Shown here: piece by piece, positions 1 through 34,694 of the stretch
How positions within the stretch are numbered: position 1 is the stretch's first letter
Layout of the letters: each line of letters starts with the position of its first letter
Assembly: GCA_008636045.1 (NCBI GenBank)
Contig: SNRW01000049.1
Coordinates: 1-34,694 of the forward strand
DNA length: 34,694 bases
Direction: 5' to 3'
DNA from: Streblomastix strix
Lineage: Eukaryota
Notes under the pieces: generated by a model
Seen by the model: the letters and a program-made list of their open reading frames with translations, nothing else
Databases searched by the model: none
What the model was told of the DNA's origin: nothing
Made by a program: the position numbers and the translations under genes

Positions 1-3000
1 GTTGATAATCATGGAATCTCAAACCCATTTGTTGTCTTAAAATATTGTGAACAAGAATTCAAAACTTAAGGGTTAAAATAGAAAGAAAAAGAGAGAGAAA
101 AAGAAAGAGAAATATAAATGTAGAAGGAATAAGAAAATGATAAAGAAAAAGAATCTGAAATAATGAGTGATGATATAAATGATTAATTGAAGAATGATGA
201 ATCTGAGAGAATGAAAGTTGAAGAAAAAGAAAAATAAATATAAATTAATAAATATAAAATAATAGAGAAAATAAAAGAGAATGAAAAAGGTCTATTAAAT
301 GAGAATTTCATTTTCTAATATGATCACGAATAGGCTGTTAATTAATCAGATAATAATCTAAATGTAGAATTTTATGACATAAATACTTTCTGGGACCCAA
401 TTTAGATTGGAAAATTAAAGATTAATATTGAGCCAGCACTTGAATAACTTCTATTAATACCAAATAATACTATTACATTCAACAAATAATTTAAAGGAGT
501 TGGTGAATTTGAAGGAAATTAAACAGGGGATATTGAAATGAAAATAAAATTTAATAGAGAATTTACAGAAGAAGAGAAAGAGAAGGCTAAAAAAGAAGAG
601 GAAGAGTAAGAAGAAATAGAAAAACAGAAATATGCTGAAGAAAAAGAAACATCAGAAAAGAAAAAGAAAGAAAAATAAGAAGATCAAAAGAAGGAAGAAT
701 AAATAAATATAGTTTAATTAAATGATTCAAAAGATGAATAATATTATGATAAGAATTATAAAAGTTAAATTAGTGAATAGGTAGAAACAATAAATAAATA
801 AAAGTAACCTGAAGATGAATAATATTATAGTTAAAGATATTAGAGTAAATATATAGATTATGTTGAAGAATAAAAAGCTCAAGGCAATGACATTGACTAT
901 GTAAATTAATTCGATTAAGACTTTACTCCTGATTATATAAGAACTGAAATTAGAAATTAAGAAGAAGAAGATTAGAAATATATTAATTAAGAATAAATCT
1001 TACTCAGAGCATCAAGTAAATAATTGCTTAATTCTGTAAGTATTATTATACATGAAAGAGATTAAGATTATTATTCTGATAGATATATTAGTGAGTTCAC
1101 ACATTTGCATGATGAAGAAGATTCAAACGCAAGTGATAAATTATTTGTTGAGAAAGATGAAGATTTCTATAGTCAAAGATACGATAGAAGATTTGATAAT
1201 GATATCTTATATTCTATGCAATCAAATGCATCTTCATAATCTAATGAAAATGATGAAAAACTTAATGAATTCAAATTTGAGGAAGAAATAGAGAATGAAT
1301 TGGAAAAATAGATTAGAACTTAATTATTTACTGATGAAGTTAATAATTAAGATCCGACCAAATAAAATGAAAATATATAATAAGATGAATAACTTAGAGA
1401 TTAAGTGGAATTAGAGAATAATAGCAAAGATGATATAGAATTAAAATAAAAAGAAACTAAAGTAGAATAATAATAAGAAGATACAACTGAGTAGAAAGAT
1501 GAAAATATTTAGAATATTAATGAAATGAATAAAATATTTAATGATGAATCAAAATTAGCCGATGAAGAAGGTTAAATTTTGAATGAAATAACATAAAATG
1601 AATTAGATATGTCTGATGAATAATAATAATAGGAATTGTAAGTAAAAGAATAAAAATAACCAAAAAAAATTATTAATAAAGATGGAAAGAAAATAAAATA
1701 AGCTGTAAATGAATCTCCAAAATAATCTCATACTAAAACATAAGAACAAATTAAACCTTAAAAGAAATAATAGAAGAAAACTTCATCTTCACCAAATAAA
1801 GTGACTGGAGCATCAAATAGATTATTTCCATATCATGCTCCTTCTCCTTAACCCTATTCATCCAAATAATCATAACCTGCATTTACATAGGCATAAATAA
1901 AGAAGATGTTGGAAGATCTTGAGAAAGGTCCTTATAGCAAAAAAACCATTAAAATATAGAAAAAAGTGATTTAATCGTAGGTACATATATATATTATTTT
2001 ATTGAAATATTAATAAAAAATCTTTTATATTCTATATCATTTATTATATAATTCATTTACTATTTATCTGAATTTGAATGATAACAAAGGTGGATATTGA
2101 TCGTATAATTCAGAAAGCAGAAGGAGATATGATGTTATCAAGTGATAAACACTATCATAATTCTCCATATAAAAAAGCATTGGCTTCAGGCTAACAATAA
2201 CCGAAATAAAGAATTAATGATGAAGATGATTATTACTAACAGCATCATTATTCGCCAGTTTATACTCCAGAAGGTTCAGAAATAAAATAAAAAAGAGCAA
2301 AATCATCTCCAAAAGTTTAAAGACAATAATAAGAACAATCCTAAGATACTTTAGGAAGATAACCAAATACTTTATTAATTAATGATAAACCCAATTCAGT
2401 AAAGAAGTAATAGAGGAAAAGAGTGAATGATAATTCAAATAACACTAATAATACAAATATCTAAACAATATCTCAACAAATTGCAGAATAGAAAAGATTA
2501 GCTGATTTAGAATAAGGGTGGGATTGTTCTGCTCCTCCATTGGGTAAACCAACTATGAGACCATATAATGCATTTATTGATCCAAATTGTACATATATGG
2601 AAAATAAATAAGTTTAAATTGATGTTAAAAGATCAATGGGAGATGATCTTGATCCTTTAACTCTCAAAATATTAAAGATGAGAAACAAATTAAAATAATA
2701 AAGAATTTAACTTTTACAAGAAGAATTTCCTGGCGAAAGTCTTCCTCTATCAAATACAAAAAGAATTTTGAACATAGATGAAAGAGAAAGATTGTCATAA
2801 AGAAGGCCAATTTCACAAAGGAGAAAAAGTTCATTAGAAGGAAGAAGTAAAAGATAGTCTTCTCCAGATGGAAGTAGAGTTAGAAGTGTAAGTCCTGTAG
2901 CTCGTAGATTAAACTCACTTCATATTGCACTATTAGCCAGAGGAAATCTGCCCAATTCATTAAGTCGATAATAATAAGAAAGAGAAAGAAAAGAAAAGAT

Positions 3001-4330
3001 TTAGAAAAGATCTTAAACATCACAGTTGCCTGAAAGAGATAGAAATAGGAATTCTGGAAGAAGATCATAAAGTCCTGTTCTTTCATCAGGAAGAAGAATA
3101 CAAACTGCTGATGATGATAATATAACAAATACTAAAAGAAGAAAGAGAGATATAGGTTTATATGAAAATGATGAAGATGAAAATAAATTACTTGAAGGAA
3201 GATATAATCGACAATCTTAATATTAATAAATTGAATATTATCCGTTATATTCTTAAAATCCTTAAAATAATTAATAACATATTGAAACAGAAGAATCATT
3301 TCTTCCACCACTTCAAGATTAGAAATAAAGTAGAAGAGGATAGAGAGATAAACTTCTATATACACCTTTGCCAAAGTAATAATTGTATAAACAGGAGAAT
3401 TAAAAATAAAACAGATAAATGAATGAAAGATATTATGAGGATTATGAAGATAAAGATAGAATTTCTCTTCCTTCAATTAATAATAACTTAAATAGAAATA
3501 AATAATCTCCATCACAAAATTAATCAAATAATAAATCTAATTTCATTGGACCCGATGGAATTGTTGGAGTATTTTCTGATGAAAATACAATGAATGACAT
3601 AGATACAAACCCACCTAATATTAAAGATCTAATTACTATTATTAGAAACAAATTAGATTATTAGAAAAAAGAAGGATAAGATAATAAATAATAATAACTT
3701 GATGATATTGATATTATAAACTCAAACGATTTTATTGTTGCATATTGGATTGCTAGCAGAAAGCTTGCCGCTTTATGGAATGTTTTAAATATTCCACTTA
3801 AGGAACAATAACTTTAATAATTTGTTATCATTCACCCAAAATCTCCAATTAATGAATCATCAAGTTATTAATCGAATGAAATCGTTAAGAAATTCTCGGA
3901 TGAAGATTAAAAACCAACTATTGAAAAATATTAAAATATTCACAATGAAATTGATTAATTATAAGAGCTATTTGATATTCGTTAAGAACTAGCTTTTTTG
4001 ATTAATGTACGAAATTCTCTTCTACTCTAATTTTTCCGCCGAGCAGGGAAATTTGGTCAATCAATACCCGAATAACTTCTTTCACAAAGATCAGATGGTG
4101 ATAATGAAAAAGAGACAAATTTGAAATCATCAATAGAAAAGTTGATTGAATAAATAAACTCATACACTTAACAAGTGAGATCAGGACTACAAGAATGGCG
4201 CAGCCTCAGACCTTGGCACAATGGCATATTACTACTAACACAACGAGATGAAGAAGCATAGTTGGAATAAGAAGATAATCTATTTCAAAGTAGGTTGTTG
4301 GAACTTTGTGATGTTTTTAAAATATAATGA
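1..4330 (+). CDS. 5'-partial C2-domain protein with a long E/K/Q-rich low-complexity region and a possible MAP65/Ase1/PRC1-like C-terminal helical domain; exons <1-1980, 2090-4330 (>1,400 aa)
   Basis: With TAR=Gln, frame 1 is open from base 1: VDNHGISNPFVVLKYCEQEFKTQG...NENFIFQYDH...LNVEFYDINTFWDPIQIGKLKINI...GDIEMKIKF, which has the C2 domain strand pattern. Phase-0 GT..AG intron at 1981-2089. The second exon is open to TGA at 4328-4330, followed by AT-rich intergenic sequence. Confidence 0.85.
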
Positions 4331-4702
4331 TATTTTCCATTTCACTTTATTTACCATTAAAAAAAATTTTAATATGATTTTAAAGCTAAATTTTTCAATA
4401 TAAACAAAATGGTAATATTTCATCCGCTACATTATTAAAATTAATATTTTATATTAAATAGTATTATATGTATTTTTTCATGGAATTTAAAATGGTAATT
4501 TTTAATCACAACAGCGTTTCAGATTTTTTAATTTAATATTACAAAAAAAATTAGAAAAATTGACTTTTCATGCCATTCAACTACAAAATATTTATATATT
4601 TCTTATTAATTAAATTAAATATTGTATTTCTTATTAGTTTAATTAAATATTATACTTATATTAATTTGTTTCATAACACATCCAATATTCAAAACGAAGA
4701 GC

Positions 4703-7700
4703 ATGACAAAGAAGGTTGGAAGATATTTTAATCCATATTTGCAAACTGCACACGAACCTTTGCAACCCCCCGAATTTTTGTAATCAGATAATAAGGAAGA
4801 TCTTATTTCTCGTATATCTTCAAAATAAGTTCCATCAAAATAAATACCTGCAACCTTAGCATCGATAAACACACCAGAAAAAAATAATATGAACATTGTA
4901 TTTAGAGGGTTAGAATCTCTTGGGGATTCGCCAATAAGACCAAATTTAGGAATTTAATATTAAGGATCAAAATTGGGTAATATTAAATTAAATGAATATG
5001 AAAAAATAGAAAATTCTACTTTTAAACCATCATCTGCCCCTATTGGATAAAAACGATAAAATTAACAACGTCCACGTTCAACTCAATCGTATTTCTCTAC
5101 AAGTGACATTTAAGTAAAAAGTTTTTAATATAAGAATTTTCCAATTGTAACTCGTCCTTCATTCACTCCAGGAACTAACAAGATGATTGGATACAATACA
5201 TGAAACTTAACAAATTCAGGTTAATTCGCATCCAAGATTGGTCAAAGGTAATTAAAATCTACATAACCAATAATATCACCAACAGAGCCTAGCACATAAA
5301 ACCAAAATTCAAACACTGATGATTACACTTAAGATAATATAAATATAAACAAGCCTTAGTCATTACTATCTTACTTTTAGGAACCTATTACATCTTAAGA
5401 TTTGCAAATTGATAATTCAAGTGATCTTCCTTAATGGTTATAGTTTAGTTAGTTAGAATCTCTTACAATTGAATCATTTTCATTTCCTCTTTCAGAATAA
5501 TTAACTCCAATGTCTAAATCTGAAATGTTGGAAGCTACAATATAAACTATTGCCTAAGCAAATGAAAAATAGAAAAAAGAAACAGAATATTTGTTGTAAA
5601 AGAGCACACCTGGATATGCTAAAGTTTATTTTATTATTAATATCGCTTAAATATTTAAATATATTAATTATTATTTTATTTTCATGTGATTAATTCATCT
5701 TAATAATATTATTAGGCAGGAGGAGCAATTGCATAATTTTCATTAAATGCATTTTAAAGAGCAGAAGCATCAATTAAAGCTGCAGAAATAGAAGCTAAGA
5801 TTTCTTAGTAACATAATGCATCTGATTAATTGTGGAGAAATATAATGCTTTAAACTAATAAACGAACTGAACCTACCAGGTATTTTTATTTTAATAGTTC
5901 TATATTATTACATTATATTCTTTTTTAGATAAGATGCTGAATTATTGGAGAAATGGATAGATTACCAGATAATGTTGTTGAAAGGAGAAAATCCAATCGA
6001 TAGAAGAGAATACTATAAGTAATTTTAGACTATTTTAGGTTGAGCATTTAATGAGTTAAATAGATAGGTAACAACTAGTTGTTTAGAGCGTGGCCATCTC
6101 TTAACTCATTTATGGATTTTATATTAATCAATTTTTGATGTATGAAACAAATAATAATAATAATAAGTTTATTAATTATTTGTAAAAATAAGTATTATTT
6201 AAATTGAAAACTTTTTTTTAATTATTATAACTATATATTAGGATATTATTCGTTTTATTACACTTAATCGTAATAAACATATAGAATTAATGGAACAATA
6301 ACTTAAAGATAAATTATTGTAAATAAAAAAAGAATAAGAAGAAAAAAGCAACACTGAATAATAGCATTTTTAGTCTCAAATAGTTTCATTAAGAGAATAG
6401 AATAGAGCTATTTCAAAGAGTTTACTTGAAATTTAGTCATAATTAACCGATAAAGAAAAAGAAATTTTCGATGCATGTTATATTAATAAAAATTTAAATA
6501 GTCAAATATTATTATTATTGTTCTTATTCTTATTCTTATTTTCTTTTTATTTTCTTTATACTTACAATTATTTTAGTTGCGTGAAACCAATAATAATCTT
6601 GAATAGGATATACAAAAATTGCAAAGCACGTTGATAAATTCTCTCAAGTTTATGTAAAGAGTAGACTAATAAGGAAATGATAATATTCATTAAAATAGTA
6701 ATATACAATAAAATAAAATAAATATTTAATAAGGAATGAATGAAATAATGTAAGGGCTGAGAGGAATAAGTATGTTTTAGTTATGAATTAAAGAAGAAAA
6801 CGTTAAAATAGAATAATAACATAAATTGATATTTATTTATATTATTATTTATATTATTATTTATATTATTAATATTATTATTAATATTATTACAAAATTT
6901 CATTTATTTCTTTACTATATTTAATTATAAATTTATTATTATTTGTTATATAATATTTATAGAGGGAAAGAAAGCTGGAGGAAATCTAAGAAAATTGGTT
7001 TCATTAATAATAAACTCGAAGCAAAACAAAATAAAATAATAAGAAATTAATTATAATCTACCGATTTCTATTTAATAAATTAATGATATTAGTCAAAACA
7101 CTAATAATGATAAAGTTAATTTGTAAAAAAGTGAATAATCCACATAATAATCTCAATAATAATTACCTAATAGATTTGCGAGAATTTCTTCAATTAATAT
7201 GAAAGATTGGTAAATGAATTAGAATATGAATAATTTATTGAATGAAAATTAATTATAATAAGATCAATAATAATAAATAGAAATCACGAAAGAAACAAAT
7301 GAAGAATAATAATAGTAATAAAAGTATGAAAATGAAAAATAACCAATAAAGGAAGAAGAAGGAATTTAAAATGATGATTAAGATGAAGAAATTGAATTGA
7401 AAATAATCAAAAAAGAAAAAAAGAAAATATATAAATATGAATATGAATATAATGATGAAGAAGAAGAAGAAGATGATGATGATGATGATGATGATGAGGA
7501 TGACGAAGTTGAATAAGAAATTTAAGGAGACATTAATAATGAATAAAATATAACACAACAAATATAACAACTTAATAGAAAAAATAATAAATAAAATAAT
7601 ATACATACGAAAAAATCTTTTTCTTTCCTAAAAACTGTTAAAAATATCGATAATTAAAATATAAATATAAATAATAATAAATAACCAAGTTGGTTAATGA

Positions 7701-10700
7701 AATAATAAGAAGAAGAATTAAAAGAAGGAAAATATGCTATAATAATGAAGGATAATTGTAACATTTAAATTTTCGATAAAAATAAAGAAGAAAAAGAGGA
7801 TTTAAAATTATTGAATTAAAAATAAGAATAAGATAAATAATAGTTCAAAGAAGACTTTCCAATTAAAGAAAATATTAATAATAATAAAGATATTGATGAA
7901 TGTTAGAATGAGCATTAACATGTTAAAATAATAACTTTTCCATTTTCTTTCATTGATCCGAAATAAATTTCGGAATATTTATAATAATAGTCTGATAATA
8001 ATAAAGCTTAATCTATTGCTATATAATTAAGAAACAAAAAAATTGCTCTTGTTGATGTTAAGAGTGAAGCTGAAGGTAAAAATTAAGAAGATTATGAGTA
8101 AGAATAATAAATATAAAATATATAAATGAAACAAAAACAATATGAATTATAGGGTGATAATTTGTTGTAATAAGAATATGAAAGAGATGAACAATAATCA
8201 AACATTTCATAGAGGCATATTCTTCATTAACACCAACCATAAATTATTACTCCTTCAAGATCTTATGATCAATAAAATAAGAAAAAACAATTAAAAGCAG
8301 TTTAGAGACCAATTTCATCAACTTCATATTCTCCTTTGATGCTTTTTTCTTCATCCTTATCATCTTTTAAATCATCTTCTCCCTAATCATAATCATAATC
8401 ATAATCATAATATCAGCAAACTAAACAGCTTTTAAAATCAAAATCGTAACCTTTAATTAATTTAAATATATAAGAATAATATGATACATAACAATAATAA
8501 TCATAATCATAATCATATTCACCTTCTTCTCCTTATTATGAAGAAAATTCTATAATTCTAAATACAAATTAATAAAATAATGAAGAAATATAAAATATAA
8601 ATGAATATAATGAATAAAAAGAAGAATCTTTGGAAGATAATTTATAAGATGCAAAGTCAATTGCAAGCTAATTGCATAGATAATCAACGAAAGGTTCAAT
8701 CTATACACATATTACTGTAGTTTCAGATAATTTTTCTGAGTTATCAAGTATTTCAAATTTGTAGAATGTCTCTAATTTACCAAAATTAGATTAAGAGAAG
8801 AAATAATAAAAAAAGCGCAAAAAATTATCATTTAAATAAGCCGCTAGATTAAAGATGACTACAAATGCAGTATTCCCTACATCTTAATAACTACATTAAT
8901 AGCAATCATAATAATCATTATAGACTATCAATTCATAATCATCTATTCATATTAGTTAATAAAAATAACAAACGTATCATCCTTCCCACCTTCATATTCG
9001 TCATATCAAAAGCAAATCACAATAAAATACTTTTAGGAAAGGTAATTTAAAGAGACTTTAATAGTAAATAAAGGATGAAGATTAAGAATAGGAATAAGAT
9101 TTAGAATATGAATAAATGGAAATAGAATAAAATTATGAAGGAAAAGAAAAAGAAAATAATTCATTTGATTTTAGTTTAAATGATGATAATATTAATGTTA
9201 TTAAATTAAATAATGATGACATTGAATATGAAAATGATAGTACAGAAAAAGAGAATAGTGAAAATGAATTTGGACAATAAAGAAATAAAGAAATATTATC
9301 TAATGTATTTTAGAGTTCATTTAGTCCACTTGATACTATTAAAGAAGAAAAAGAGAAAAAGATTGAAAAAGATATGGAAGTTAATAATTAGGAAGAGTAA
9401 GATTAAAATAAAGAGAAAAAGAATGAAGATGATAAAAAGATGGATAATAATTAAGATAAAGATTCGGATAAAAAATTAATTAAATATTACACTGCATATA
9501 ATCCATAAAATCCTCGTTATAATTAAACTAATTATTAGCAACAATTACTTCCAAGTTAACCCAATATTAATGAAAATAACATTAATAAAAAAATATCAAG
9601 ATCTAAATCATAAATTCAATAATAATATATAGATAATAATTTGAATTAAATCTAGAACAATAAAGAAAACACAAATTTTGATTAAAAGAAGGATTATTCA
9701 TTAGGTGCAAAACGCTAATCAAAAATTTATTAATAATATGTGTAATAACAATAGATAAATAAGTAAATTAAATAATAATTAGATAGTAATTTAAATAGTA
9801 GCAATAACTAATAACAATAATTAAGTTCAAGAGTATTCAAAATTAAGATTGACAAATTACCTAGAATATAACCACAAATAAGAGTTATTGAAAAAGATGT
9901 TGGCATATAATGTTATTTGGATGATAATTAAATGTATTTAATAGACGAAATAAAATAAAGGATGAAAGGATAAACATTAAACTTAGAATAAGAGAAAGAA
10001 CAGAAGAATAATGAATAATAAAAAAATGATAAAGAATTGAATACGTAAATAAGGAGGATAAATTCAGTTACAAAAGAAAATTCAATTTAAAATGGTATTT
10101 TAAGTAATAAATTAAATTAATCCGAAGAAAAAGTTAAAGGCATCAAAAATGAAATAAATCATGAAATTTAAGGATAAAACAAATATAATCTTCTTCTTAA
10201 AGTTCAATTTGGATTATAAGATAAAATATTAAATGAATAGGAATATCTATAATGGAAATAGAAAATGAAAGAAGAAGATGAATTAAATGCAGAAAATGAA
10301 GAAAAAAGAATTAAAAAGAAAGAAGATGAAGATGAATAGAAAAGAAGATAAGAAGAAGAAGATGAAGAAGAAAGAAATGAATAAAAAAGAATTGAATAAG
10401 AATAGGATTTATAACTTAGAATGAAGTAGATAGAATTATAATATATAAAACAAAATAATAAAGCATATATATCTTAATAATTTATTTAATTACAAGCACT
10501 CTAATAATAATTATTAGATTTGGAAAAGAAAGAAAAAGTGGAAAAAGAGAAATAAGAAGAATTGAAGAAGATTGAAATTGAGAAATAGAAAGAGAACGAA
10601 AAATATGAGTAAGAATATAAACAATAAATACAAATGAAAAAGATATATTAATAATAACAATTAAGGTTAGAAGAAAAAGAAAAAGAGAGAAAGTAAGAAA

Positions 10701-13700
10701 GAAAAGAAGGATAAATATAATTTGAAACATAAAATATTATTATAGGTACAGATTTTATTTCAAATAAAAATTAGAATGAAATTGCACAATAAAGAGATAA
10801 TGAAATAAATGTAGTAAATCAAATAGAATAATAGAAAAATGAATTAATAAGTTAAATAAAAATCATTCGAAGGAGTATGATTAACAGAAAAATAGTAAAT
10901 GAAGAGGATATTATATAGAAATAGTAATTCTTATAACAATTATATTCAAATCTCTTCAACAATCATAAATATTCATTGGCATCCTTTTAACTTCCCTCGC
11001 CTGATACAATCATTGCTCTATATGAAGAAGAGTATCAAGTTATCTTATAATTGTCTATTATAGATGAAATCGAGAAGAAATTCAGAGAAATTAATAATGA
11101 GAAGAAACTTACCGAGAAATAACAGGAAATTGATTAAGAAAAAGTGATAGAAATCGATAAAAAGAATTAAAAATAGAAAGAGAAAGAGAAAGAAAAAGAA
11201 AAACCTAAAAAGAAATTTAAATAAGAAAAAGATAATATATAAATTCCACCTATTAATTAATAGAATTTAAAGTAAAAAGAAATATAAAACCAAATACAAA
11301 TATTAAAAGTTGCCTAAAAAGCTACTAATTAAATATTATTAAATAGAACCAATGAATTTAACGATGAACTTGAAGAAGAATAATAATAATTAGGAGATTA
11401 AGATAAAGAATAAAATATTGTCATAAATGGTGATGCTATTGTTAGTTTGTTTATTTGTTTATTATTTTTTATTTTAATTTTCTTCAATTAATTCAAATTT
11501 ACTATTTTAAATATTAATAATTAATCAGCCAAAATGCCTTTGTTTTCAAATTTAATTTCTAATGTCGGACTAAGCTGGATGAAAGATCTAATACCAAATA
11601 ATTATTTCTCAGTAAATCAACTTAATTCATAACAGTTTATATCAAATTTATTTATTTCAAATAATCAAAGCCCAGACAATTAAGAATAACAATTAAACGA
11701 TGAAAAAGGAATAATCAACGAATAATAATTTGCTTATAATAATATAAAAGATGGATTAAATTAAAATATGAACTTTAATATAGGTATTATGCATCCCATA
11801 CTTTATATGAACATGATATAATCATAAGTATTTTAATTAAAATTGAATGAAAGAACGTAGAAAGTGAAGATGAATGAGAAAAAGAACGTAGATGAAGAGT
11901 AAAATGATAAAAATGACTAATAATTGGAAGATGAGGAATAAGAAGATGATATAGATAATTTTCTGGAATAATGGCAATCTATGAATTAATTTAATAATTA
12001 TAACAAATATACTTCTCAAAATTCACAGTAATCTTATTCATATACGCAATAATTCCATTATCAATAACTTTAAAATTAATTCTATAATTTTATCCTTCAC
12101 CATTAGAAATTACTATCTTAATAATTCCCTTTTTCTTTTCTATCTTTTATTTCTATAAAATAAATTAAATCTATTTTGCGAATTCATATTAATTTAATTA
12201 AACAATTAAGAGAATTAGTTGAAAAAGTTATTGAGATGTTTTAAGTATAAATATTATAATTTAAAATAATAATTTATTAATTTTAAAAATATTAAATTTA
12301 TCATTTTTAATTTCTATTTTCTATACTCTTTATATATTAATTTATTACAGATATAATTGAATAAATCTTTGAATTTAAAACCAATAAAATAACAAAAATA
12401 AACATAGATTTAGAAATCCAATCTAAATAATAAATAATAATAATAATCATCTTCAGAATCATCCTCTTCTTTTTCATATCCATTTCCTTCTCCTCAATCT
12501 TCTTAATAATTGACATTTACATTCTCATCATCATCTATAAGTTCTTTCTTATAATAATAATACCCTCTTTCTTTCCCTTGTTTTATTTTTAGAATAAATG
12601 AATAACTACCCTTTTCAATTCCAGATATTGAGATATTTAACATTTAATAAGTTATAAAAATGATTGGAGAAGGAAAAATTATTGAATATGCCTGGGTTTG
12701 AATATTATTATTATACCTTTACTTAGAAATAATTTATTATGTCTTCATTGCATTACCTTTTTTTATTACAATTTATTTATTTATTTAATAGGCAAACACA
12801 TAAATAATGAGAGATTTATAAAATTAACATTAATAATTAAAATAAAAATAAATAAATGAAAATATCAAAATGTAATAATAGTAAGAATTAGAATAACAAT
12901 CTAAATTTTTTGATAATTTGAAACTTTTGAATATAAATAAAATGAAAGAAAAAATAAACTTAAATGAAAAGGAAAAGGAAAAGGAAAAGGAAAGAAAGAA
13001 GAAATAATATGAAAAGAAAAAGGAGAAAGAGACAAATAAAAAATCTGTCATATTATCTTCTGGTAGCACAGAATAATTAAATATAAATAATTAATTATAA
13101 TAATCTTAATAATTATAGTAATAATAAATTATTTACTCTGATAACAATAAATAAACATTATTAGTAAATAAAGAAGGTGGAGAAAATATTGCATTCAAGT
13201 AAATTGTAAAAACTGAAGATTAAAATGAAATTTATGATAGAAGTTAAATTTCATTAGTAGATGCTGCTACTTTATAAAAATAGTAATCAGATTAATTAGA
13301 ATCATAAAATAAAGCAAAATAATTAGACAAGGAGCATGAATAAAATTAATCATTGTAATATTAATAGTAAATATAGTATAGTTCACAATCTTTAAATAAT
13401 TCTGATAGTAATATTAATGAATAAAAAAAAAGAAGATCATTATAAAGTTTTTAATAAAATAATAATCCACAATAATAAAATCATAGACAACAATCCATCT
13501 AACAATAATAAATTTCCAATTAACATACTCAAATATCCTAATTTTAGTCTCATCCTAAACTTCCTTCAATTTAATTATCATAATCAAGTTGATAAATGAC
13601 TCATTAAAAATCATCATAAAGTGATTTATAGAATAAAGAAGTATAATTATTAAAATAAGGAGATAACATTGAAAGAGAATAAAAAGATGATGATAAAGAA

Positions 13701-16700
13701 ATTGATAAGAAAAATAATAATCTTAAATATCATCATATTCATCATCATCACCACCACCATCATCATCTTTAATAATAATAATAAGAAGAAGAAGAATAAT
13801 AATAATCAAATATTAATAATATAGAATAATTAGATGAATAATAAATATAGACAGAAATTAATTAAAGAAATCATTCTCCATTATCTTATAGTTCAATTAA
13901 ATAGAAAGATGATTAATCTTTATCTCTTTCTTCTCGGTCTAACAAATCTTCATCTCGATCTGAAAAATCAAATAAATAATAGAAATTAAAGAAATAATAT
14001 GGATAAAGTAAAATAAATTTAAAAGATTAGTAATTACAATAATAGACAGAGAATTAATTTGATAAAGAAATGATGACTATTAAGAGAAAAGCATAATTAT
14101 TGAATATTACTGATACTAATTAGTATGAAAAAGAAAATCCTGAATTATAAATATCTACACGTGCATCTTCTCGTATTTCTTTTATTCCTCAACAATCTCC
14201 TTTGATCTAAGCATCTTAATAATAAAAGAAAAAACAAAGTAGAAAATAGAAATAAAATAAACTTTCAAATCAATAAACATAAAAATCTAATCATAATAAA
14301 AGAATGAATACTTATTCATCATTTAATTCATCTGTATCTTCCAATTCAAGACAATCAGCTCGCTCAAAATATTCTCTTTTGTCCATTTCACAATCTAATT
14401 CTTCATCCTAAGATTCTGCATCATCATCTACTTTCTCTTCATCTATTTCATAATCGCAGCATTCTATTTCATATTCTTCTATTTCATATTCTTATTCTTC
14501 ATCATCAACTTAACATTAAGAGAAAAAATTGAAAATAAGTAAGAAATTAAATAATTAAAAGAAAAATAAATTAATTAATAAATAAATAAAAAAGGATTAG
14601 AGCATTAGATCGTTTCAATCAAATACTTCAAATGGAAATTTAAATATTAAAAAAATTAATAATTTCAAAGCAAATTAAATATTATAAAAGAAGAAAAACA
14701 ATGAAAAAAATTAAAATTAATAACAAAATTAGCAAAATAAAGATTTAAATATAAATATACAATAATAATAAAATGAATAAATAAATAAATAACAAAAAGA
14801 TGAAATTATTACGAAATAAATCGAAGAAAATGACTAATAAATTGTGAAAGAATAAAATACTAATATAGAAAAACAGAAGAAAAGGACATAAAATCATAAA
14901 TCGCACCACCATCATTAAAAACATCATCATCATCATCATCATCATCACAAGAATAATGAATAATAAGAAAAAGAATTAGATAAATAGAATGGTGATGATT
15001 TGATTAAAGTTAATAATTAAATTGTTCCTTAAGATTTAACTCAAAATAATAATGAACTTTAAAATTAAGAATAATAATAGAATTAAGATGATATTCTTTA
15101 GAACAATTCATTAAGTTCAGAATAATAAAAAGAACTTGAATAATAAGATATAGCTTAATAATAAATATTAAAAAAGCACCTAAATCCAGAATATAATCCT
15201 TTTATTCCTTAATCATTCTAGCATTTGATAAGAGTGATAAAAGATTATCATCCAAATTTATTATCTTTATAATAATTAAGAAAAGATATATATTTAATAT
15301 ATTAGGACAAATAAGAGGCTGATTAACTTGATAAATAAAATAATAAAGAAACTTAGAGATTGAGTGAATTTGTATTTGATTATTATTTATATTAATTAGT
15401 ATGAATATATTAATATTATAATAATAGATTTATTATTTTTATTAATTAGTATGAATATATTAATATTATAATAATAGATTTATATTTTCTATTCATTATT
15501 AAATCAATTACCTTTTTTTATTAGGGAATGAGAAATTTAGCTGAAATTAAAATTATTGACTTAATAGCATCTGTGAGAAAATATGCATATCTTTCATCTC
15601 GTGTGAGACTATTCGGAAAATTTTGTGGTATTTTAAATATTCAACATTTATAGGTATTGTATGACACTAATTATTAACATAATCATTAAATTATTGTTTC
15701 CTTTTTATCATTTTTTATTATATTTTAATATTCCTTAAATAGAGTGACCCATTTAATCTAAACTTATTTGATTTATAAAAAGAAGAAGAAAGAAAATAAA
15801 TTATAAAGGTTTGATAAAGATTTAATATTAATTCATCAGTAATTTAAACTTTTGTTGGGTATACTTTTCTGTTTCAATTATAATTATTTTTATTTTATCA
15901 TTTAATAATTGTATAAAAAGGATGCACGTAGTGAATTAATTTAATAGTAAGAGGAAAAGGAGATGAACGAAAAAGAATAGTAGAAAGAATAAAAAAAGAT
16001 TATGTAATAGACTATTAAAGGAGAAGATTAACATATTATTGAAAATAATGATGATATTTTATTAAATTAAAAGTAATTATCATTGAAATTTGCAGCTAAA
16101 GCAGATGTCGCAGTTTAAAAGTTTGAAAATTTACTAAAGAAAAAAAGAAACGAAAATAATAATGTAAATATCAATTAAATGAAATAATAATAATAATAAG
16201 ATGATGAAGATAATAATAGAGATAATTAGTTTGGAAATGAATAATTTGATAGTGGAAATTATTTTAATTTTGATTTATAGAAATAAAAAAAACTAATGAT
16301 GAACGCATTTTCTGGTATTGAAGATGAAACAGGTAAAGATTAAACAGATTAATAATAATAATCATCAGATAGATAAATAGACTAAAATTAGAATTAATAA
16401 ATTAAATTAAAATAATTTTAACCAAAATAAAAACAATTTTTAAATAAATTATCATTTGGATAAAATAAATAAGATTTTGAAATGAAAATTATATAATAAC
16501 CTTCTGTATCTAATTTGAATTTATTAAAATAATAAAGAATTAATAATATTACTTTAAATGAAAGATTAAAATCCGGTCAACAATCATCAATTTCATTATT
16601 AACATCTAATTCATCATCTTCTTTCTTTCCTAATTAACCGCAATTTTCTTCAATGCAAATAAAATAATAGACAAAATAATAATCATAATTATAAAAAGAA

Positions 16701-18155
16701 ATGCATTAATAATAATTGAAATAATAATTTGAAGGAGAGTTAACAATTAAAAAGAAGAAAGGAATTTAGAATGTTTTGGATTATTTGTAAATAGAATAAA
16801 TAGACGTAAAAGGAAATATTAGTAACAATGATATTAAGAATTATAGAGATAATTTTGATAGAAATAAGTTTATAATATAATAATTTAATAAAATTAATAT
16901 TTATTTTTTATTTATTTTAACGTTTTTTCATTACTTCTGCTTCTCTATTTAATATATTTAGTATTGCAGTTTAAAAATAATAATAATTAGATGACATTTC
17001 CCCTCACTCGTTTGACTTACAGTGGCCAAAAGCGGCTATTGATTTCACGATGAGATTATTATAATTGATTTTGTAAAAAGGCACTGCATTAGCATTACCA
17101 ACGCTTTCTACAGCAGATGAATAATTTATCATATCAATTACAAGAGCTGTAGAATCAGCTTAATAATTCTTTAAAGTTATAATATTATTATCTAAATTAA
17201 ATAATTCATATATCAATTATTTCACATATATATCATATATATTTTTCATTATATTTATTGATATTAATAACAGGATATGCCAGATAAATCAAAATAACAT
17301 ATAATCGCAGAAATATAGAGAATTGGTGCTGATGGGTATGCATCTAAAATTAAATTAAACAGAATAAATTCAAATATTTTTCTTTTTATTTTTTATATAT
17401 AAATTTTCAATAGTACTGTTAATGTTGATGAAATGTTGGAACTCGCTACAATTGAATATATGACCTAATATTACATCTTAATATAAAAAATCAGCAACAT
17501 ATTAGCATTCTCTGCATTTTAAAATTCACCTTATCTTTCTAAGATATTTGCATAGAAAGCCAGAAATAATGGAGTTGATGAAATTGAGGTGTTAAATGCA
17601 GAAGAAGAATATTTGGAAGTATTTTCTGTGCTTTCTTCTCTTTCAACAGAGTCAATCCTTACATTTAATGAGTTTCGGTCTATAGTAAAAGTATTACAAC
17701 CTACATTAGAAGAACGAATGGCAGTAAGACTTTATAGAGAATCGCTATGTTATTTTGATTCATTAGTTATTAGCCCATTCTCATTATTAATCGTTTGTGA
17801 TAACGCGGGAATTTTTGGTAATGCAGGAACATCTCTGAAAATACCGAATAATATTTTAATATAAGTTGATGAAGATAATAATTAGCTACAAAATATAATA
17901 AGTATAATTTGGAAATCTTCATATCCATTATTAAGTAGCAAACTGATAGATATATAGACTAAGTAACCAAATCTTCCAATATCTGCATTTGGAACGCTTC
18001 GAAATAGAATTGAAAATATAAGTGTTGTTGTTTCATCTAATAAGACTCCATAGCGAGCTTTGCGTGAGATCAGAAGCCTCTTTGTAGATTTATCATTACT
18101 TGGAGGAGATTTAACATAAGGAAGAGGTGAAAGGAATTAGATAATGATGTTTTGA
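4703..18155 (+). CDS. Giant (~4,009 aa) protein: N-terminal axonemal dynein light chain (p28/DNALI1/AXDND1-type) domain, coiled coil, Q/E/K/S/N low-complexity middle, C-terminal TSNAXIP1-like/EF-hand-like region; contains 3 in-frame TGA
   Basis: Exons 4703-5623, 5716-5879, 5929-6139, 6242-6472, 6577-6769, 6963-11444, 11529-12244, 12351-12695, 12792-15398, 15525-15653, 15743-15808, 15921-16867, 16962-17175, 17274-17335, 17414-18155 sum to 12,030 nt (divisible by 3) with compatible intron phases. Motifs: EPTRQDAELLEKWID...AFNELNRQVTTSCLERGHLLTHLW (Ax_dynein_light FxELxRQVxxxCxERGxLL); IYQDKQEADQLD...LSEFVFDYYLYQLGMRNLAEIKIIDLIASVRKY...RVRLFGKFCG; LTFNEFRSIVKVLQPTLEERMAVRLYRESL. In-frame TGA at 5201, 6041 and 13590; terminal TGA at 18153-18155. 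Confidence 0.8.
6473..6576 (+). other. Probable non-canonical GC-AG spliceosomal intron
   Basis: The downstream exon (LRETNNNLEQDIQKLQS) needs a phase-0 donor. The GT dinucleotides at 6477, 6501 and 6520 are phase 1, 1 and 2, whereas GCATGT at 6473 is phase 0 and resembles GTATGT. The acceptor is ttttag at 6576. Confidence 0.6.
15381..15483 (+). repeat. ~50-bp tandem duplication spanning a 5' splice site
   Basis: attaattagtatgaatatattaatattataataatagatttat occurs at 15391 and again at 15441 (period 50), duplicating the GTATGA donor (15399 and 15449). Confidence 0.9.
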
Positions 18156-18361
18156 TAAAGATGATCATATTAATTTATTTTATAAAAACCTTGTATTATA
18201 TTTATTTCACGTACTAATTGTTTTTTTCAAAATTATATCTAATATTGACATTTTCTCTTTTTGTGAAGATTAATAAAATATCCTATAAATAACCAAAATT
18301 GAATATACATGTGAACCAATTTATATTTTTTTCTAGTCATTATTCCTACTATTATATATTC

Positions 18362-18843
18362 AGTATATTTTAAAATTTTTAATATAAATCCAACACTTTA
18401 ATTATCCTCAAAAAAAACCCAAACTTAACCCAACAACAAGTGAGAAATTAAAATAAAAGATCTCAATGTTATGCATTAATCACTACTGTAAATTATGTGT
18501 TTTTCTATATATATTATCCAGAAATAATTTTTTTAATTTGGAATCATTCTCAATAATAACATTTATTTTAATTCCATCGAGTTATGTCTCGCTGAAATTC
18601 ATATGAAAAAAAACAACTATTACGCTCGCGTAACAATCATTCAGTTTATATATCTACATTATTATTATTATTATTATTATATATTCTTTGCTTCTAACCC
18701 TTCCACCACATACTCACAAATAAATTCACATTAAGCGACATTTAACCAAATGATTTAAATTTTTTTAATAAACAAGTCGAGTGTTCTCAAATAATTAATA
18801 CATTTATCTTTTGTATTATATTAAATTTTTGATAAATTGACTT
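18362..18843 (+). repeat. Left arm of a long inverted repeat; forms the upstream region of MED10
   Basis: Reverse complement of 21231-21700, e.g. aatccaacactttaattatcctc, attccatcgagttatgtctcgctgaaattcatatg and ttccaccacatactcacaaataaattcac are all mirrored. The arms differ by scattered substitutions and (ATT)n length. Confidence 0.95.
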
Positions 18844-18910
18844 GATCTCATTTTATTTGCTGATTTATTTTCTTTTCTTAAAGACTATTAGTTATTATAT
18901 TTAAGTTCAT

Positions 18911-19641: not shown

Positions 19642-21114
19642 TCATTTCTTCTTCAATATGCCTCCACCTCCTTTCACAATTACTTTACTATTTGACATGT
19701 ATGAAGAAGAGTTATTCCTCCCAAGAGCTGTATTTCGTAAGGCAAAATTTCGAGCAGCTGGAGACATGGCGAGTAATTGTTGTCGTGGTGTTTGTGGTGC
19801 CATTGCTCGAGGTGTCTACATATTTGCTGCTCCTGACATACGTGGTGTGAGTGATGTAATCTAATTAAGTGAAATGTGACCTTGTTTCTTCTTCATAGCT
19901 ATTTGAGATGGTGTTGATTGGCTTCGTGTTACTCTAACAGCCAAAGCAGCTCTCATTTTATCAGCGATGGCATGTGCTCCTTCTTCCCTCGCTGGTGTTG
20001 GCGGCATCCTGAATATTCTCTCATCTGCAACTCCAGCTCCAATTTATAGACCCAATTCCTCTGATCCTGTATTGATTAATTTGGGAGTACTTCCAACTGA
20101 TCCCCAAGTAATGAATGGTGTTACTCCTCCTTATGCAAGTCTCCCTGGAGAAGGTGCAGGTGTATTGATCTGTAAATCTGATACATTGGATCCAATATTT
20201 GGTGTTACTCCACCCCAACCCCAATTAACTCCTGGACCACCGACTTATTCTTCTTCATTTATTGGATCATTTGTTTTAATTAGTTAATTATTAGATTCAA
20301 TTATACTTGTTATTTCATCTCCAGTTAAATTATCTCTTTTAAATCGAGTATTTTATCTTCTCACAATAGAAGGAGGTCCCATTTACTCTTATGGATCAAG
20401 TTATTAATCACCTGGTGGAAGACTGACAGATGTTGAAGTGATGGCCATTGCAAGTGTCGGTGGTATTGATGATGTTGATGATGTTGATGTTGAATTGATG
20501 TGAATTGGTTATTCGGATCTTAATACAATCGCTGATGAGTTTTCACTGCGTAAAATTATCGCTGTTGAATTATCTTTTTAGGTTTAATTTCCATCAGTGA
20601 GCTGATGATAAATAAAGAGTAATAATTATATATATTAAAATAAACATTTTGTAGATATACCATTTTTATTTATTCTTATGGTTGTAAATTGTTTTCTAAG
20701 TTCTAATTCTATTTTTTATTTCTAGAAAAAGCCCACTGCATAAAATGAATTAAAGAAATAAATTATAAATCAAATAAACAAATAAAAGATCATAAACCCA
20801 TCTCTATTGGCGGAAACGTTCACTTTGATCATCCATCAATTCTCGAAAACTGGACATAAAAATATATTATACGTATATTTAATATAACAAACAAACCTAT
20901 CAGTATCCTCAGCTGTTATGTGCTCATGAATTGTATCAAGGTGTGCTTTTGTTTTATTAATTTCTTCCTTCTACTGTAATGTTTGACCTTCAATATCACC
21001 AATACCTTCAATAGTTTGACTTCGCAATGTTTTCAAGTCTGGGAAAAAATCACGCTCAATTACATTCCTAAGAATATTCATATATTTTTTCTGATCAAGT
21101 ACGTTTTCAGCCAT
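19642..21114 (-). CDS. ESS2: Splicing factor ESS-2 / ES2 / DGCR14 homolog; exons 21114-20897, 20849-20798, 20735-20661, 20601-19642 (434 aa)
   Basis: MAENVLDQKKYMNILRNVIERDFFPDL, ITAEDTDSFRELMD, TPAPSPG..TPFITWGSVGSTP, FRMPPTPAREE and MSPAARNF match ES2-family motifs (VLDExxY..IxRDFFPD, TSEDNASF, SPxMTWGxxxxTP, SPAAQ). Ends at TGA (tca at 19642-19644). Confidence 0.92.
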
Positions 21115-21230: not shown

Positions 21231-21700
21231 AAGTCAATTTATCAAAAATTTAATATAATACAAAAGATAAGAGTATTAATTATTTGAGAACGCACAACTT
21301 GTTTATTAAATAAATTTAAATCATTTGGTTAAATATCGTTTAATGTGAATTTATTTGTGAGTATGTGGTGGAAGAGTTAGAAGCAAAATATATATAATAA
21401 TAATGTAGATATATAAACTGAATGATTGTTGCGCGAGCGTAATAGTTGTTTTTTTCATATGAATTTCAGCGAGACATAACTCGATGGAATTAAAATAAAT
21501 GTTATTATTGAGAATGATTCCGAATTAAAAAAATTATTTTTGGATAATATATATAGAAAAACACATAATTTACAGTAGTGATTAATGCATAACATTGAGA
21601 TCTTTTATTTTAAATACTCACTTGTTGTTGGGTTAAGTTTGGGTTTTTTTTTGAGGATAATTAAAGTGTTGGATTTATATTAAAAATATTAAAATATACT
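21231..21700 (-). repeat. Right arm of the long inverted repeat; forms the upstream region of ESS2
   Basis: Reverse complement of 18362-18843; its inner end is 116 nt upstream of the ESS2 ATG. Confidence 0.95.
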
Positions 21701-21808
21701 AAATGTTTATACACAACCTTTATTAATCAACTTGTTCAGTTATGAAATGAATAAAAATCATTCAACAAGCAAAATTAAATAATTTTATAATTTGAGGGGT
21801 TTTACCAT

Positions 21809-27800: not shown

Positions 27801-30155
27801 TCTATATTATCATTTAAAATTTTCTAATCTTTTCTTTCATCAAATTTGATTTAAGAAACTAAGTAATTATCATTTTAAATAATTTTATCATTCACTTGAA
27901 TTATTTGTTCATTTGTATTTTGATTAAGATTAGATAATAAATCAAAATTATTCTACTAACCATCATCCTAAAAAATTAATTGTTACTAACTTATTTATAA
28001 CTAATTTTATTAAATGTTTTAATTAAATGAATAATTTTGTTATATTTGTTATTATTATGGCAATATTTACTAATGAAATGGTGTTACTGTATCACTTTTG
28101 ACTAAAATATTAATATTTTAATTTCTTTTAGGTTAAAATACTGGTGCTGATAATCTAAGCTGTTTCTTAACTTTTTCTGGAGAATTTTAATCAATTTATT
28201 ACTAATCTACATAACTGCTGTTAATATTTAATTATGAGGTCAATTATTTTTATTATATGTTTTAAGGTAATGTGATAGGTTCAATGTACTAATGATTATT
28301 TTATAAAGGAATCTGAGTTTAATTCAAATTATTTAAATAATTTGAATAAAGTGGAGGCTGTATAAGTTAATTCTATTGAAATGATTAAGTCTAATTGTAT
28401 TAATTTGTTAAATCTTATTGTTATTAAGGTGAAAAAGGTAATAAATATTGCTATTAATTATTTGTTTAATTTAAATTTATTGAAAATGTTTGAATTGGTT
28501 ATATTTACCTATTATAATATTCTGAAGAATGAGAAGGAAGTTAGTGAATTTATGGATGAATTTAATTAATATCATTTGATTAAAAAGAATAAGATGGAGA
28601 AACTTGATTAAATTAATATGAAGAAGAAGTCTATTATGAAGATGATATTGAAGAAGCTATCTATTATTATTCGTTGATATTTTGAATTATATATTATTAT
28701 TATTATTATTTCAATTGATTTAAATTTTAACTTGAATTTAGATTATTCATATGTGATGTGAATTATAATGAATCTCTTTCTTATACATTATTCATTATTT
28801 AAAGAGATGATGACTATTAATTAATTAAATTGGTTGATTAATGAATTGTTTTATTAAATTCTATTTATTCCTTATTCTTATTTACATCTGCTTTCAATAA
28901 TTTCTTTTCTTTTTTCTTTTCTCGCATCTTTTCTTTTCTCTTTTCCTTCTTTTTCTTTTTCTATTATTCTTTATCTTATTCACTCTTTTCTACTTTAGTT
29001 GGTTTAACCTTCACTTCATGAACTGTCCAAAAATAGTTTCTCTTTTTCATTTTCTATGATTTGTTCTCATATCGAGGTTTATATTTAACACATACCCCGC
29101 AAACGTTCACCTTCCTTTCTTACTCTTCTAACTATAATGCTCGAGTTGCAGCCTGAATAATAAAATTTATAAGAAAATGAATGTTAATAAAGTAACATTA
29201 AAGAAGAAAATTAAGTTTAATAACCCTTTCTCCTTTTCCACTATTCACAAAAAATATTATTCCACATCCTTTGAAATTTCCTAATCTATCTACTTAAAGA
29301 TCAGCACGAATGACAGGACCAAATTTCTAAGCAAAAGCTTCAATCACAGCCTCTTCTGAAAATGATTATAAACTACTGTTAGGAATTGGCGTTTCAAAGT
29401 AAACGAATATTGAATTATTAAGAAATTCAGAATCAGCCCACATTACATTCAATATGACTCCAGAGTAATTCAAGTTAATAAGGCGATCTTTGGCATGTTA
29501 AGCACTAAATCTAAGTTCATATTGAACATACAATGTGAAGAATCCCTTAGTTTCCTCTTTTTCCAATGTTTTAACCCTTGCATAATCTCCAAAATAACGA
29601 AGATTGACAAGATTATAAAGCTCCGAATGATTTGCTGAGAGTGGAATTGGGAAAATGGCAATGCTTGTGTTTATATGAGTTTTGCTAATTCTTAGAATGC
29701 ATCCATCCTAGAGTTTCTGATATAATAATTGAAGCAATAAGAAAATAGATAACAAATAAAAATTGTAAACAAGAGTTCGTTAAGAAAGCACATGTCGAGT
29801 GGACCTTGTATCGCTGAAATATATAAAGGCATATTTCTTTAGTTATTCATGTTTCTTTTAAATGGATTGTTCTTTCGCAGAAAAATCAATATTATTCTCA
29901 AATTAACAATGTAATATTTATCCGAATGTACTGAAAACTCATCATAATTCAATTGCATCAAACAGTTATAAATCTCCACGAATCATAACACCTGTCCTGC
30001 TTTTTATCTCATTTAATTAGTTAATTTCAGTAGATTTGTGAGATTAATTTATTTGGGATGAAGATCCTACGAAATAAAAATAGTAATTGTCAGAAAATGG
30101 TCAAAATAAAAAACATACCTACAAAAACATTTTGATGCGATTCAAGTGGTTCCAT
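21809..30155 (-). CDS. Large (~2,720 aa) RNA-binding protein with three N-terminal RRM-like domains and a ~2,400-aa Q/S/N/P-rich low-complexity tail; contains tandem in-frame TGA-TGA in RRM1
   Basis: Exons 30155-30119, 30066-29771, 29716-29225, 29152-21809 (8,169 nt, divisible by 3). RRM1: TGVMIRGDLQLFDAIEL**VFSTFGQILHCQF...KYAFIYFSD. RRM2: SIAIFPIP...YFGDYARV...LYVQYELRFSAQHAKDRL...LNVMWAD. RRM3: SIFVYF...AFAQKFGPVIRADLQVDRLGNFKGCGIIFF. The last exon has no in-frame TGA for 7.3 kb. The first downstream TGA is 21811-21809; an alternative stop is 21760-21758. Confidence 0.82.

Positions 30156-30578: not shown

Positions 30579-34694
<4,116 letters not shown>

Follow-up and report, generated by a model that had tools for sequence, protein, structure and literature searches.

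Stop codons with a dual meaning are known mostly from ciliates, with a few cases in other protist lineages, and the termite-gut oxymonad Streblomastix strix is known to use NCBI table 6, in which TAR encodes Gln and TGA is a stop; TAR is likewise Gln in an oxymonad from Cryptocercus. A Gln/Gln/Arg code is of a kind already described: the accessible part of PMC10089648 infers it computationally in seven spirotrich ciliates, which include Uronychia, Stylonychia lemnae, Sterkiella, Tetmemena, Paraurostyla and Uroleptopsis. A putative Arg meaning of UGA is also given for the mitogenome of Craticula vanensis and suspected in the plastids of Trentepohliales and the mitochondria of oikopleurids (PMC13672107, in the text available).

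How does S. strix compare with these systems? We analysed a stretch of 34,694 nucleotides of its nuclear genome (contig SNRW01000049.1, assembly GCA_008636045.1; hereafter the window) that holds five gene models. As expected from table 6, TAA and TAG occupy Gln columns and TGA ends all five models; unlike table 6, five TGAs lie inside modelled coding regions. With the spirotrich Gln/Gln/Arg code, as far as the accessible account goes, the window shares TAA/TAG as Gln, a minority of internal TGAs at Arg and an AT-rich genome, but hundreds of sites are known genome-wide in spirotrichs (987 in U. setigera), whereas here one is alignable out of five in total. Oxymonads are unrelated to ciliates and the same code would therefore imply an independent origin. 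A further likeness is to Condylostoma, Parduczia and Amoebophrya sp. ex Karlodinium, in which all three stops occur inside genes and UGA is kept as terminator (PMC6394959, PMC10089648, as excerpted); in contrast to the Condylostoma type (UAR Gln, UGA Trp or stop), however, conserved Trp in S. strix is TGG and the TGA column is Arg. The organellar cases resemble the present one in having UGA at Arg columns and in being computational, according to the portion of the source at hand, but here the codon is nuclear, rare and dual. In a 2026 paper on oxymonad transcriptomes the code of S. strix, inferred from tubulins alone, is TAR Gln only, and the accessible text does not mention TGA or UGA (PMC13002328). 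No published report of an internal UGA in Streblomastix or other oxymonads was found in the literature covered, the species' genome paper lying outside it.

Gene A and the spliced contig across codon 400

Under the standard code the window contains 8 open frames of at least 100 aa, and long frames appear under table 6. TAA and TAG behave as Gln codons: among 13 shared Gln columns 7 are TAA/TAG and 3 CAA. The five gene models comprise 9,869 codons with no frameshift and with 5 internal TGAs (~0.5 per 1,000 codons), three in gene A and two in gene B, the other three genes having none; AT-rich sequence follows the terminal TGA in all five. The features of gene A are as follows.

4703..18155, + strand: gene A, 14-exon model of 3,987 codons in one frame
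4703-5623, 5716-5879, 5929-6139, 6242-6472, 6577-6769, 6963-11444, + strand: exons 1-6
11529-12244, 12351-12695, 12792-15398, 15525-15653, + strand: exons 7-10
15921-16867, 16962-17175, 17274-17335, 17414-18155, + strand: exons 11-14
5624..5715, + strand: intron 1, GT-AG, spliced in run X2
5880..5928, + strand: intron 2, GT-AG, spliced in run X2
6140..6241, + strand: intron 3, GT-AG, spliced in run X2
5929..6139, + strand: exon 3, core of the PF10211-like domain
5201..5203, + strand: internal in-frame TGA, codon 167, from the gene model
6041..6043, + strand: internal in-frame TGA, codon 400, Arg at this column in oxymonad orthologs
13590..13592, + strand: internal in-frame TGA, codon 2688, from the gene model, within an insert
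18153..18155, + strand: terminal TGA, shortly past the last block conserved with orthologs

The bases at 6041..6043 of the forward strand were read directly as TGA, in the frame given in the preliminary description, and this frame is continuous with the upstream PTR-x-D motif through the intron at 5880-5928. As that description recognized, a 20-nt GT..AG stretch at 6019-6038 cannot remove the TGA, as it ends before the codon and its length is not a multiple of three; moreover, none of the 20 modelled introns (47-267 nt) is as short, and the transcript contig described below does not skip it. To that description it must be added that this TGA is one of several: in-frame TGAs are also found at codons 167 and 2688, besides the terminal one, and at codons 54-55 of the neighbouring gene B. 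The loss of more than 3,500 intact codons, were this a true stop, is right in size, with 3,587 codons to the terminal stop, but one of these is itself a TGA (codon 2688).

Three sequencing runs (X1, X2 and X3) were compared with positions 4600-7200. One X2 contig (depth 12.2) covers 5474-5623, 5716-5877, 5927-6139 and 6242-6286 and joins across three GT-AG introns; it appears to derive from spliced RNA, and X2 was taken as cDNA because this contig is spliced. At 6041-6043 the contig is identical to the window, so that the TGA is kept in spliced sequence, the place where the preliminary description had suggested looking for a cDNA without the codon. Within the same exon the contig departs from the window at 6004 and 6094, one difference on each side of the TGA and both synonymous; a third difference is one base in exon 2, its position not located. 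If a quarter of changes are assumed to be synonymous, the chance that both located differences are so is ~0.06, which is weak evidence. Codon 400 is not covered in X1 and X3, X1 being without depth at 5992-6078. The check on mature mRNA thus reached one of the five internal TGAs (6041), which is retained; that at 5201 is outside the X2 cover. The contig has a loose end whose 30 bases equal the reverse strand of 14834-14863 in exon 9, with 8 bases overlapping at the joint; it would be a chimera formed by amplification within a single long transcript that extends beyond codon 2688.

A misassembly, an undetected intron or complete editing is unlikely because the spliced contig of a second sample keeps the TGA. 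In favour of an artefact or of repair at the RNA level it can be said that X1, the possible source of the window, has no depth over this codon, the genomic base not having been re-read, and that contigs show presence only and drop rare variants, so that a minor spliced or edited form could escape. Among 27 frame-preserving intron candidates over 6041, however, the most intron-like (GC 0.24, T 0.42) would take the conserved core out of the domain. None over 5201 or 13590 is intron-like (T at most 0.35 against 0.42-0.61), and those closest to intron composition over 6041 and 29944 just reach its limits. Taken together, we regard an explanation of this kind as highly improbable.

Gene A encodes a PF10211-like domain, a coiled coil, long Gln/Asn-rich inserts and a conserved C-terminal region. 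Its introns comprise 12 GT-AG and one GC-AG, the first three confirmed by X2 and the other ten inferred from splice signals and, where these match, from homolog alignments. Intron 4 (6473-6576) needs the GC donor to keep the frame, and the resulting junction aligns gap-free to Blattamonas; in Monocercomonoides GT-AG boundaries are described as ubiquitous (PMC6759080, in its accessible text). At the start of intron 9 (15399-15498) a direct duplication of ~50 bases gives the donor site a second copy (GT at 15399 and 15449). As many as 533 of the 630 Gln codons of the gene are TAA or TAG.

The preliminary description identified an axonemal dynein light chain domain at this site. PF10211 does align across the codon (E 2.8e-5, exon 3 alone scanned, residues 35-61 of the exon against 62-88 of the profile), yet the score of 24.7 bits falls just short of the gathering threshold of 26.4. 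Gene A shares with the family (p28/DNALI1) the core F-x-E-L-x-R-Q-V...C-x-E-R-G-x-L-L, but it differs in its length and in a long C-terminal region that it has in common with Blattamonas hypothetical proteins, and p28 carries Gln at the TGA column. The product is not a small p28 light chain, but a protein of ~4,000 residues with a PF10211-like domain near its N-terminus; judging from the family, it is probably flagellar when full-length.

A search with exon 3 against 1.84 billion representatives returned 23 matches, one of which is the annotated S. strix protein itself (P0001). The best named matches, 10 of the other 22 having been looked up by name, are Blattamonas nauphoetae proteins of 1,458-1,537 aa. 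Blocks of Blattamonas P0004 and P0005 are colinear with gene A from 5782 to 18107, single Blattamonas proteins match both sides of codons 400 and 2688 in order, and P0003 matches the N-terminus from 4769, more weakly; gene A would be orthologous to Blattamonas BLNAU_19170/19495. Alignment-based homolog searches covered only the length ranges 2,691-5,000 aa and 30-37 aa, where they gave nothing, and are uninformative. At columns common to two Blattamonas paralogs identity is 38/93 before codon 400, 38/65 just after it and 160/288 in the C-terminal part. Conservation is no lower after codon 400 than before. Gene A is ~2.6 times as long as its Blattamonas orthologs, through the Gln/Asn-rich inserts (6963-15398).

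Genes A and B could be recent, still transcribed pseudogenes or fixed nonsense alleles, in which TGA is a true stop derived from CGA. TGA is the only possible nonsense codon when TAA and TAG are Gln, ~2.6-3.2% of substitutions would create it, and the public annotation ends the protein at the 6041 TGA (P0001, 130 aa, matching the frame without a difference as far as the TGA). On the other hand, no frameshift occurs in 3,987 codons despite 13 A/T runs of at least 7, and the splice sites of the 13 modelled introns are intact, although a very recent pseudogene would pass this test too. The force of the frameshift argument is moderate: if the gene decayed neutrally, two additional lesions would both be TGA with a probability of 0.04-0.38 at the frameshift rates assumed, the upper value being that at low indel rates. 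The TGA is common to two haplotypes that differ synonymously at both located sites, and a spliced transcript is present though UPF1 homologs are listed for S. strix (PMC10703272 supplements). Among the 10 of 22 matches looked up by name no further copy of the domain from S. strix came up, which is weak evidence in an assembly reported, in the part of that source available, as 69.6% complete (PMC10703272). We consider loss of function quite unlikely. Readthrough of an intact gene, which had been presented as demonstrated, would be the best-supported reading on sequence grounds, with a recent pseudogene as a competitor.

The residue at codon 400

The column of codon 400 was surveyed in 30 homologs (22 representatives and 8 cluster members), which carry Ile 9, Thr 5, Arg 4, Ala 3, Leu 3, Gln 2, Val 2, Lys 1 and Gly 1. 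The column had been described as variable, and unable to tell which residue is inserted; this is true of the wide family and of distant homologs, but not of the nearest ones. Among the five nearest homologs Arg was observed directly in four (P0003, P0004, P0005 and P0024) and Lys in one (P0002), the Arg bearers being three Blattamonas proteins, two of them near-identical, and one other. In P0004 and P0005 the Arg is stable in 28/28 alignment runs. Codon 167 was tried as a second Arg site and is not counted, Arg being aligned in all three covering homologs in only 6/28 runs; codon 2688 lies in an insert that Blattamonas lacks and is unalignable. The tally over the three internal TGAs of gene A is one robust, one unstable and one unalignable; the Arg assignment, a suggestion of the alignments, rests on one alignable column.

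Translation through the TGAs might instead involve site-specific programmed or leaky readthrough, or a residue other than Arg (Gln, Trp, Cys or Sec), and not a general Arg meaning; we judge this fairly unlikely. With respect to another residue, p28-type chains with solved structures have Gln at the column in 3/3 alignments shown, and Gln was also suggested by the abundant TAA, but this candidate was lowered once the oxymonad orthologs gave Arg. Trp, the reading implied by the preliminary description, was rejected: no Trp is present at the column (0/30 homologs), and the six Trp columns common to two Blattamonas paralogs are TGG in five and TGA in none, with 38 TGG codons counted in the five gene models. 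Sec might find a basis in the SelB gene listed for S. strix (PMC10703272 supplements), but it was rejected with Cys at 0/30, and a crude SECIS pattern gave 0 matches 3' of genes A and B.

Arg at the column is what a pseudogene would also show if CGA had mutated. The Arg column alone cannot separate a sense codon from a dead gene, because CGA-to-TGA is a common nonsense change. Depending on CpG mutability, Arg codons would supply 8-41% of new TGAs, and CpG is depleted here (observed/expected about 0.5).

The downstream hairpin and the other internal TGAs

A candidate stimulator of readthrough follows codon 400, and the remaining internal TGAs of the window lie in gene B.

6045..6114, + strand: predicted hairpin, 10-bp stem 6050-6059/6101-6110 with a 6-nt spacer after the TGA
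29939..29944, - strand: tandem in-frame TGA-TGA, codons 54-55 of gene B, from the gene model
30155-21809, - strand: gene B, an RRM gene of 2,722 codons, with an RRM_1 match further along the same frame

The hairpin has a predicted energy of -18.6 kcal/mol and ranks 0.002 among 1,952 coding windows, which makes it exceptional and speaks for site-specific readthrough at 6041. Only 1/343 GC-matched windows is as stable, possibly the overlapping window itself, and 0/118 random windows have a synonymous-resampling z as low. Its spacer and stem resemble published 3' stimulators of UGA readthrough (alphaviruses, Drosophila kelch, the SEPN1 element; PMC3159437, in the part accessible), but the 3' context in S. 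strix is GCA and not CUA or CGG. The signal varies with window length, which was picked after the fold had been seen: among 500 synonymous resamplings 0, 1, 3 and 9 are as stable for 72, 75, 90 and 96 nt, against 213/500 for a 60-nt window in which the 3' arm is cut, and 17/200 shuffles are as stable as the 105-nt fold. The X2 letter at 6094 turns a G-C pair of the upper stem into G-U and weakens the hairpin by 4.2, to -14.4 kcal/mol, leaving the basal stem unchanged. Moreover, a full-length gene A protein needs three readthroughs, and no unusual structure was predicted at the other three TGA sites (ranks 0.18-0.55); Rfam gave no match in 4600-7200. The hairpin may assist readthrough at 6041 and does not explain the other TGAs.

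The TGAs at 5201, 13590 and 29939-29944 are those predicted by the gene models. Gene B is the weaker case, because the 60 bases after its tandem TGAs (GC 0.22, T 0.45) have a composition like that after true stops. The tandem pair appears to lie between what would be the first strand and first helix of the RRM. If the TGAs mark pseudogenes, both gene A and gene B must have lost their function within a neighbourhood of five genes, which speaks against that reading. A codon-usage scan for TGAs with coding sequence on both sides ranked 13590 fourth of 1,547 and left 5201, 6041 and 29944 outside the top 30, but the scan was dominated by low-complexity sequence and was not used.

A possible dual meaning of UGA

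Based on these observations, we propose that UGA is a rare codon of dual meaning in S. strix, standing for Arg within genes and for stop at their ends, a reading to which we give about an even chance; that codon 400 itself is translated through appears likely. A broader and more tentative version, which we put just short of even, is that in the nuclear code of S. strix all three stops are read as their sense neighbours with C at the first position (UAA/UAG as Gln, UGA as Arg or stop). Such a code would be a first for metamonads and, as a Gln/Gln/Arg code, the first beyond the ciliates; many of the 56,706 annotated genes would then be fragments split at sense UGAs. Against an Arg code stands the scarcity of internal TGAs, only 5 in 9,869 codons.

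In this model of a dual codon, codon 400 would once have been CGA and have had its C replaced by T; the change that relates CAA/CAG to TAA/TAG is of the same kind, also at the first position. It could be decoded by tRNA-Arg(UCG), with G-U pairing at the first codon position, or alternatively by a copy of a tRNA-Arg whose anticodon has changed to UCA. In mammalian cells, efficient suppression is obtained with Arg tRNAs engineered to carry a UGA anticodon (10.1101/400127, in the portion seen); positions 1-10999 of the window contain no tRNA genes. A release factor already blind to UAA and UAG might need proximity to the 3' end to terminate efficiently, and readthrough at 6041 alone may be helped by the hairpin that follows after 6 nt. 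An eRF1 is listed for S. strix in the PMC10703272 supplements; in Condylostoma, according to the summary in PMC10089648, termination is favoured by closeness to the 3' end. The internal TGAs of the window lie 3,900-11,463 spliced bases from the ends of their own genes.

What would such a codon mean? If true, it would be an independent case, in an oxymonad, of the loss of UAA/UAG termination repeatedly leading to a leaky, Arg-reading UGA, and would offer a test of how ribosomes distinguish sense from stop; ~0.5 TGAs per 1,000 codons would then correspond to an early stage. There is also a consequence for annotation: the public proteome of S. strix, which has served arguments on gene absence in oxymonads, reduces gene A to 130 of ~3,990 residues.

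The rest of the window offers some minor observations. An inverted duplication of ~490 bases, 94% identical (18358-18846, + strand; 21231-21704, - strand), flanks an Es2-like gene and a 0.8-kb spacer, and may be what is left of a mobile element or an intergenic element that was duplicated. The Es2-family gene (19642-21114, - strand; PF09751, E 2.5e-10) has an intron 2 with two in-frame acceptors (20723 and 20603), which leaves its model uncertain. The 5'-open gene at 1-4330 (+ strand), presumably C2-like at its N-terminus, has no internal TGA in 1,406 codons. Gene C (30579-34693, - strand) is likewise 5'-open and without an internal TGA, and shows weak EF-hand matches; one stretch of it resembles, by eye, the conserved C-terminal region of gene A near 15200-15650, and it is a possible distant paralog of gene A. 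At the end of the contig a long stretch of (TAA)n (frame end at 32780-32890, + strand, and ~34590-34694) reads as poly-Gln in the minus-strand frame of gene C.
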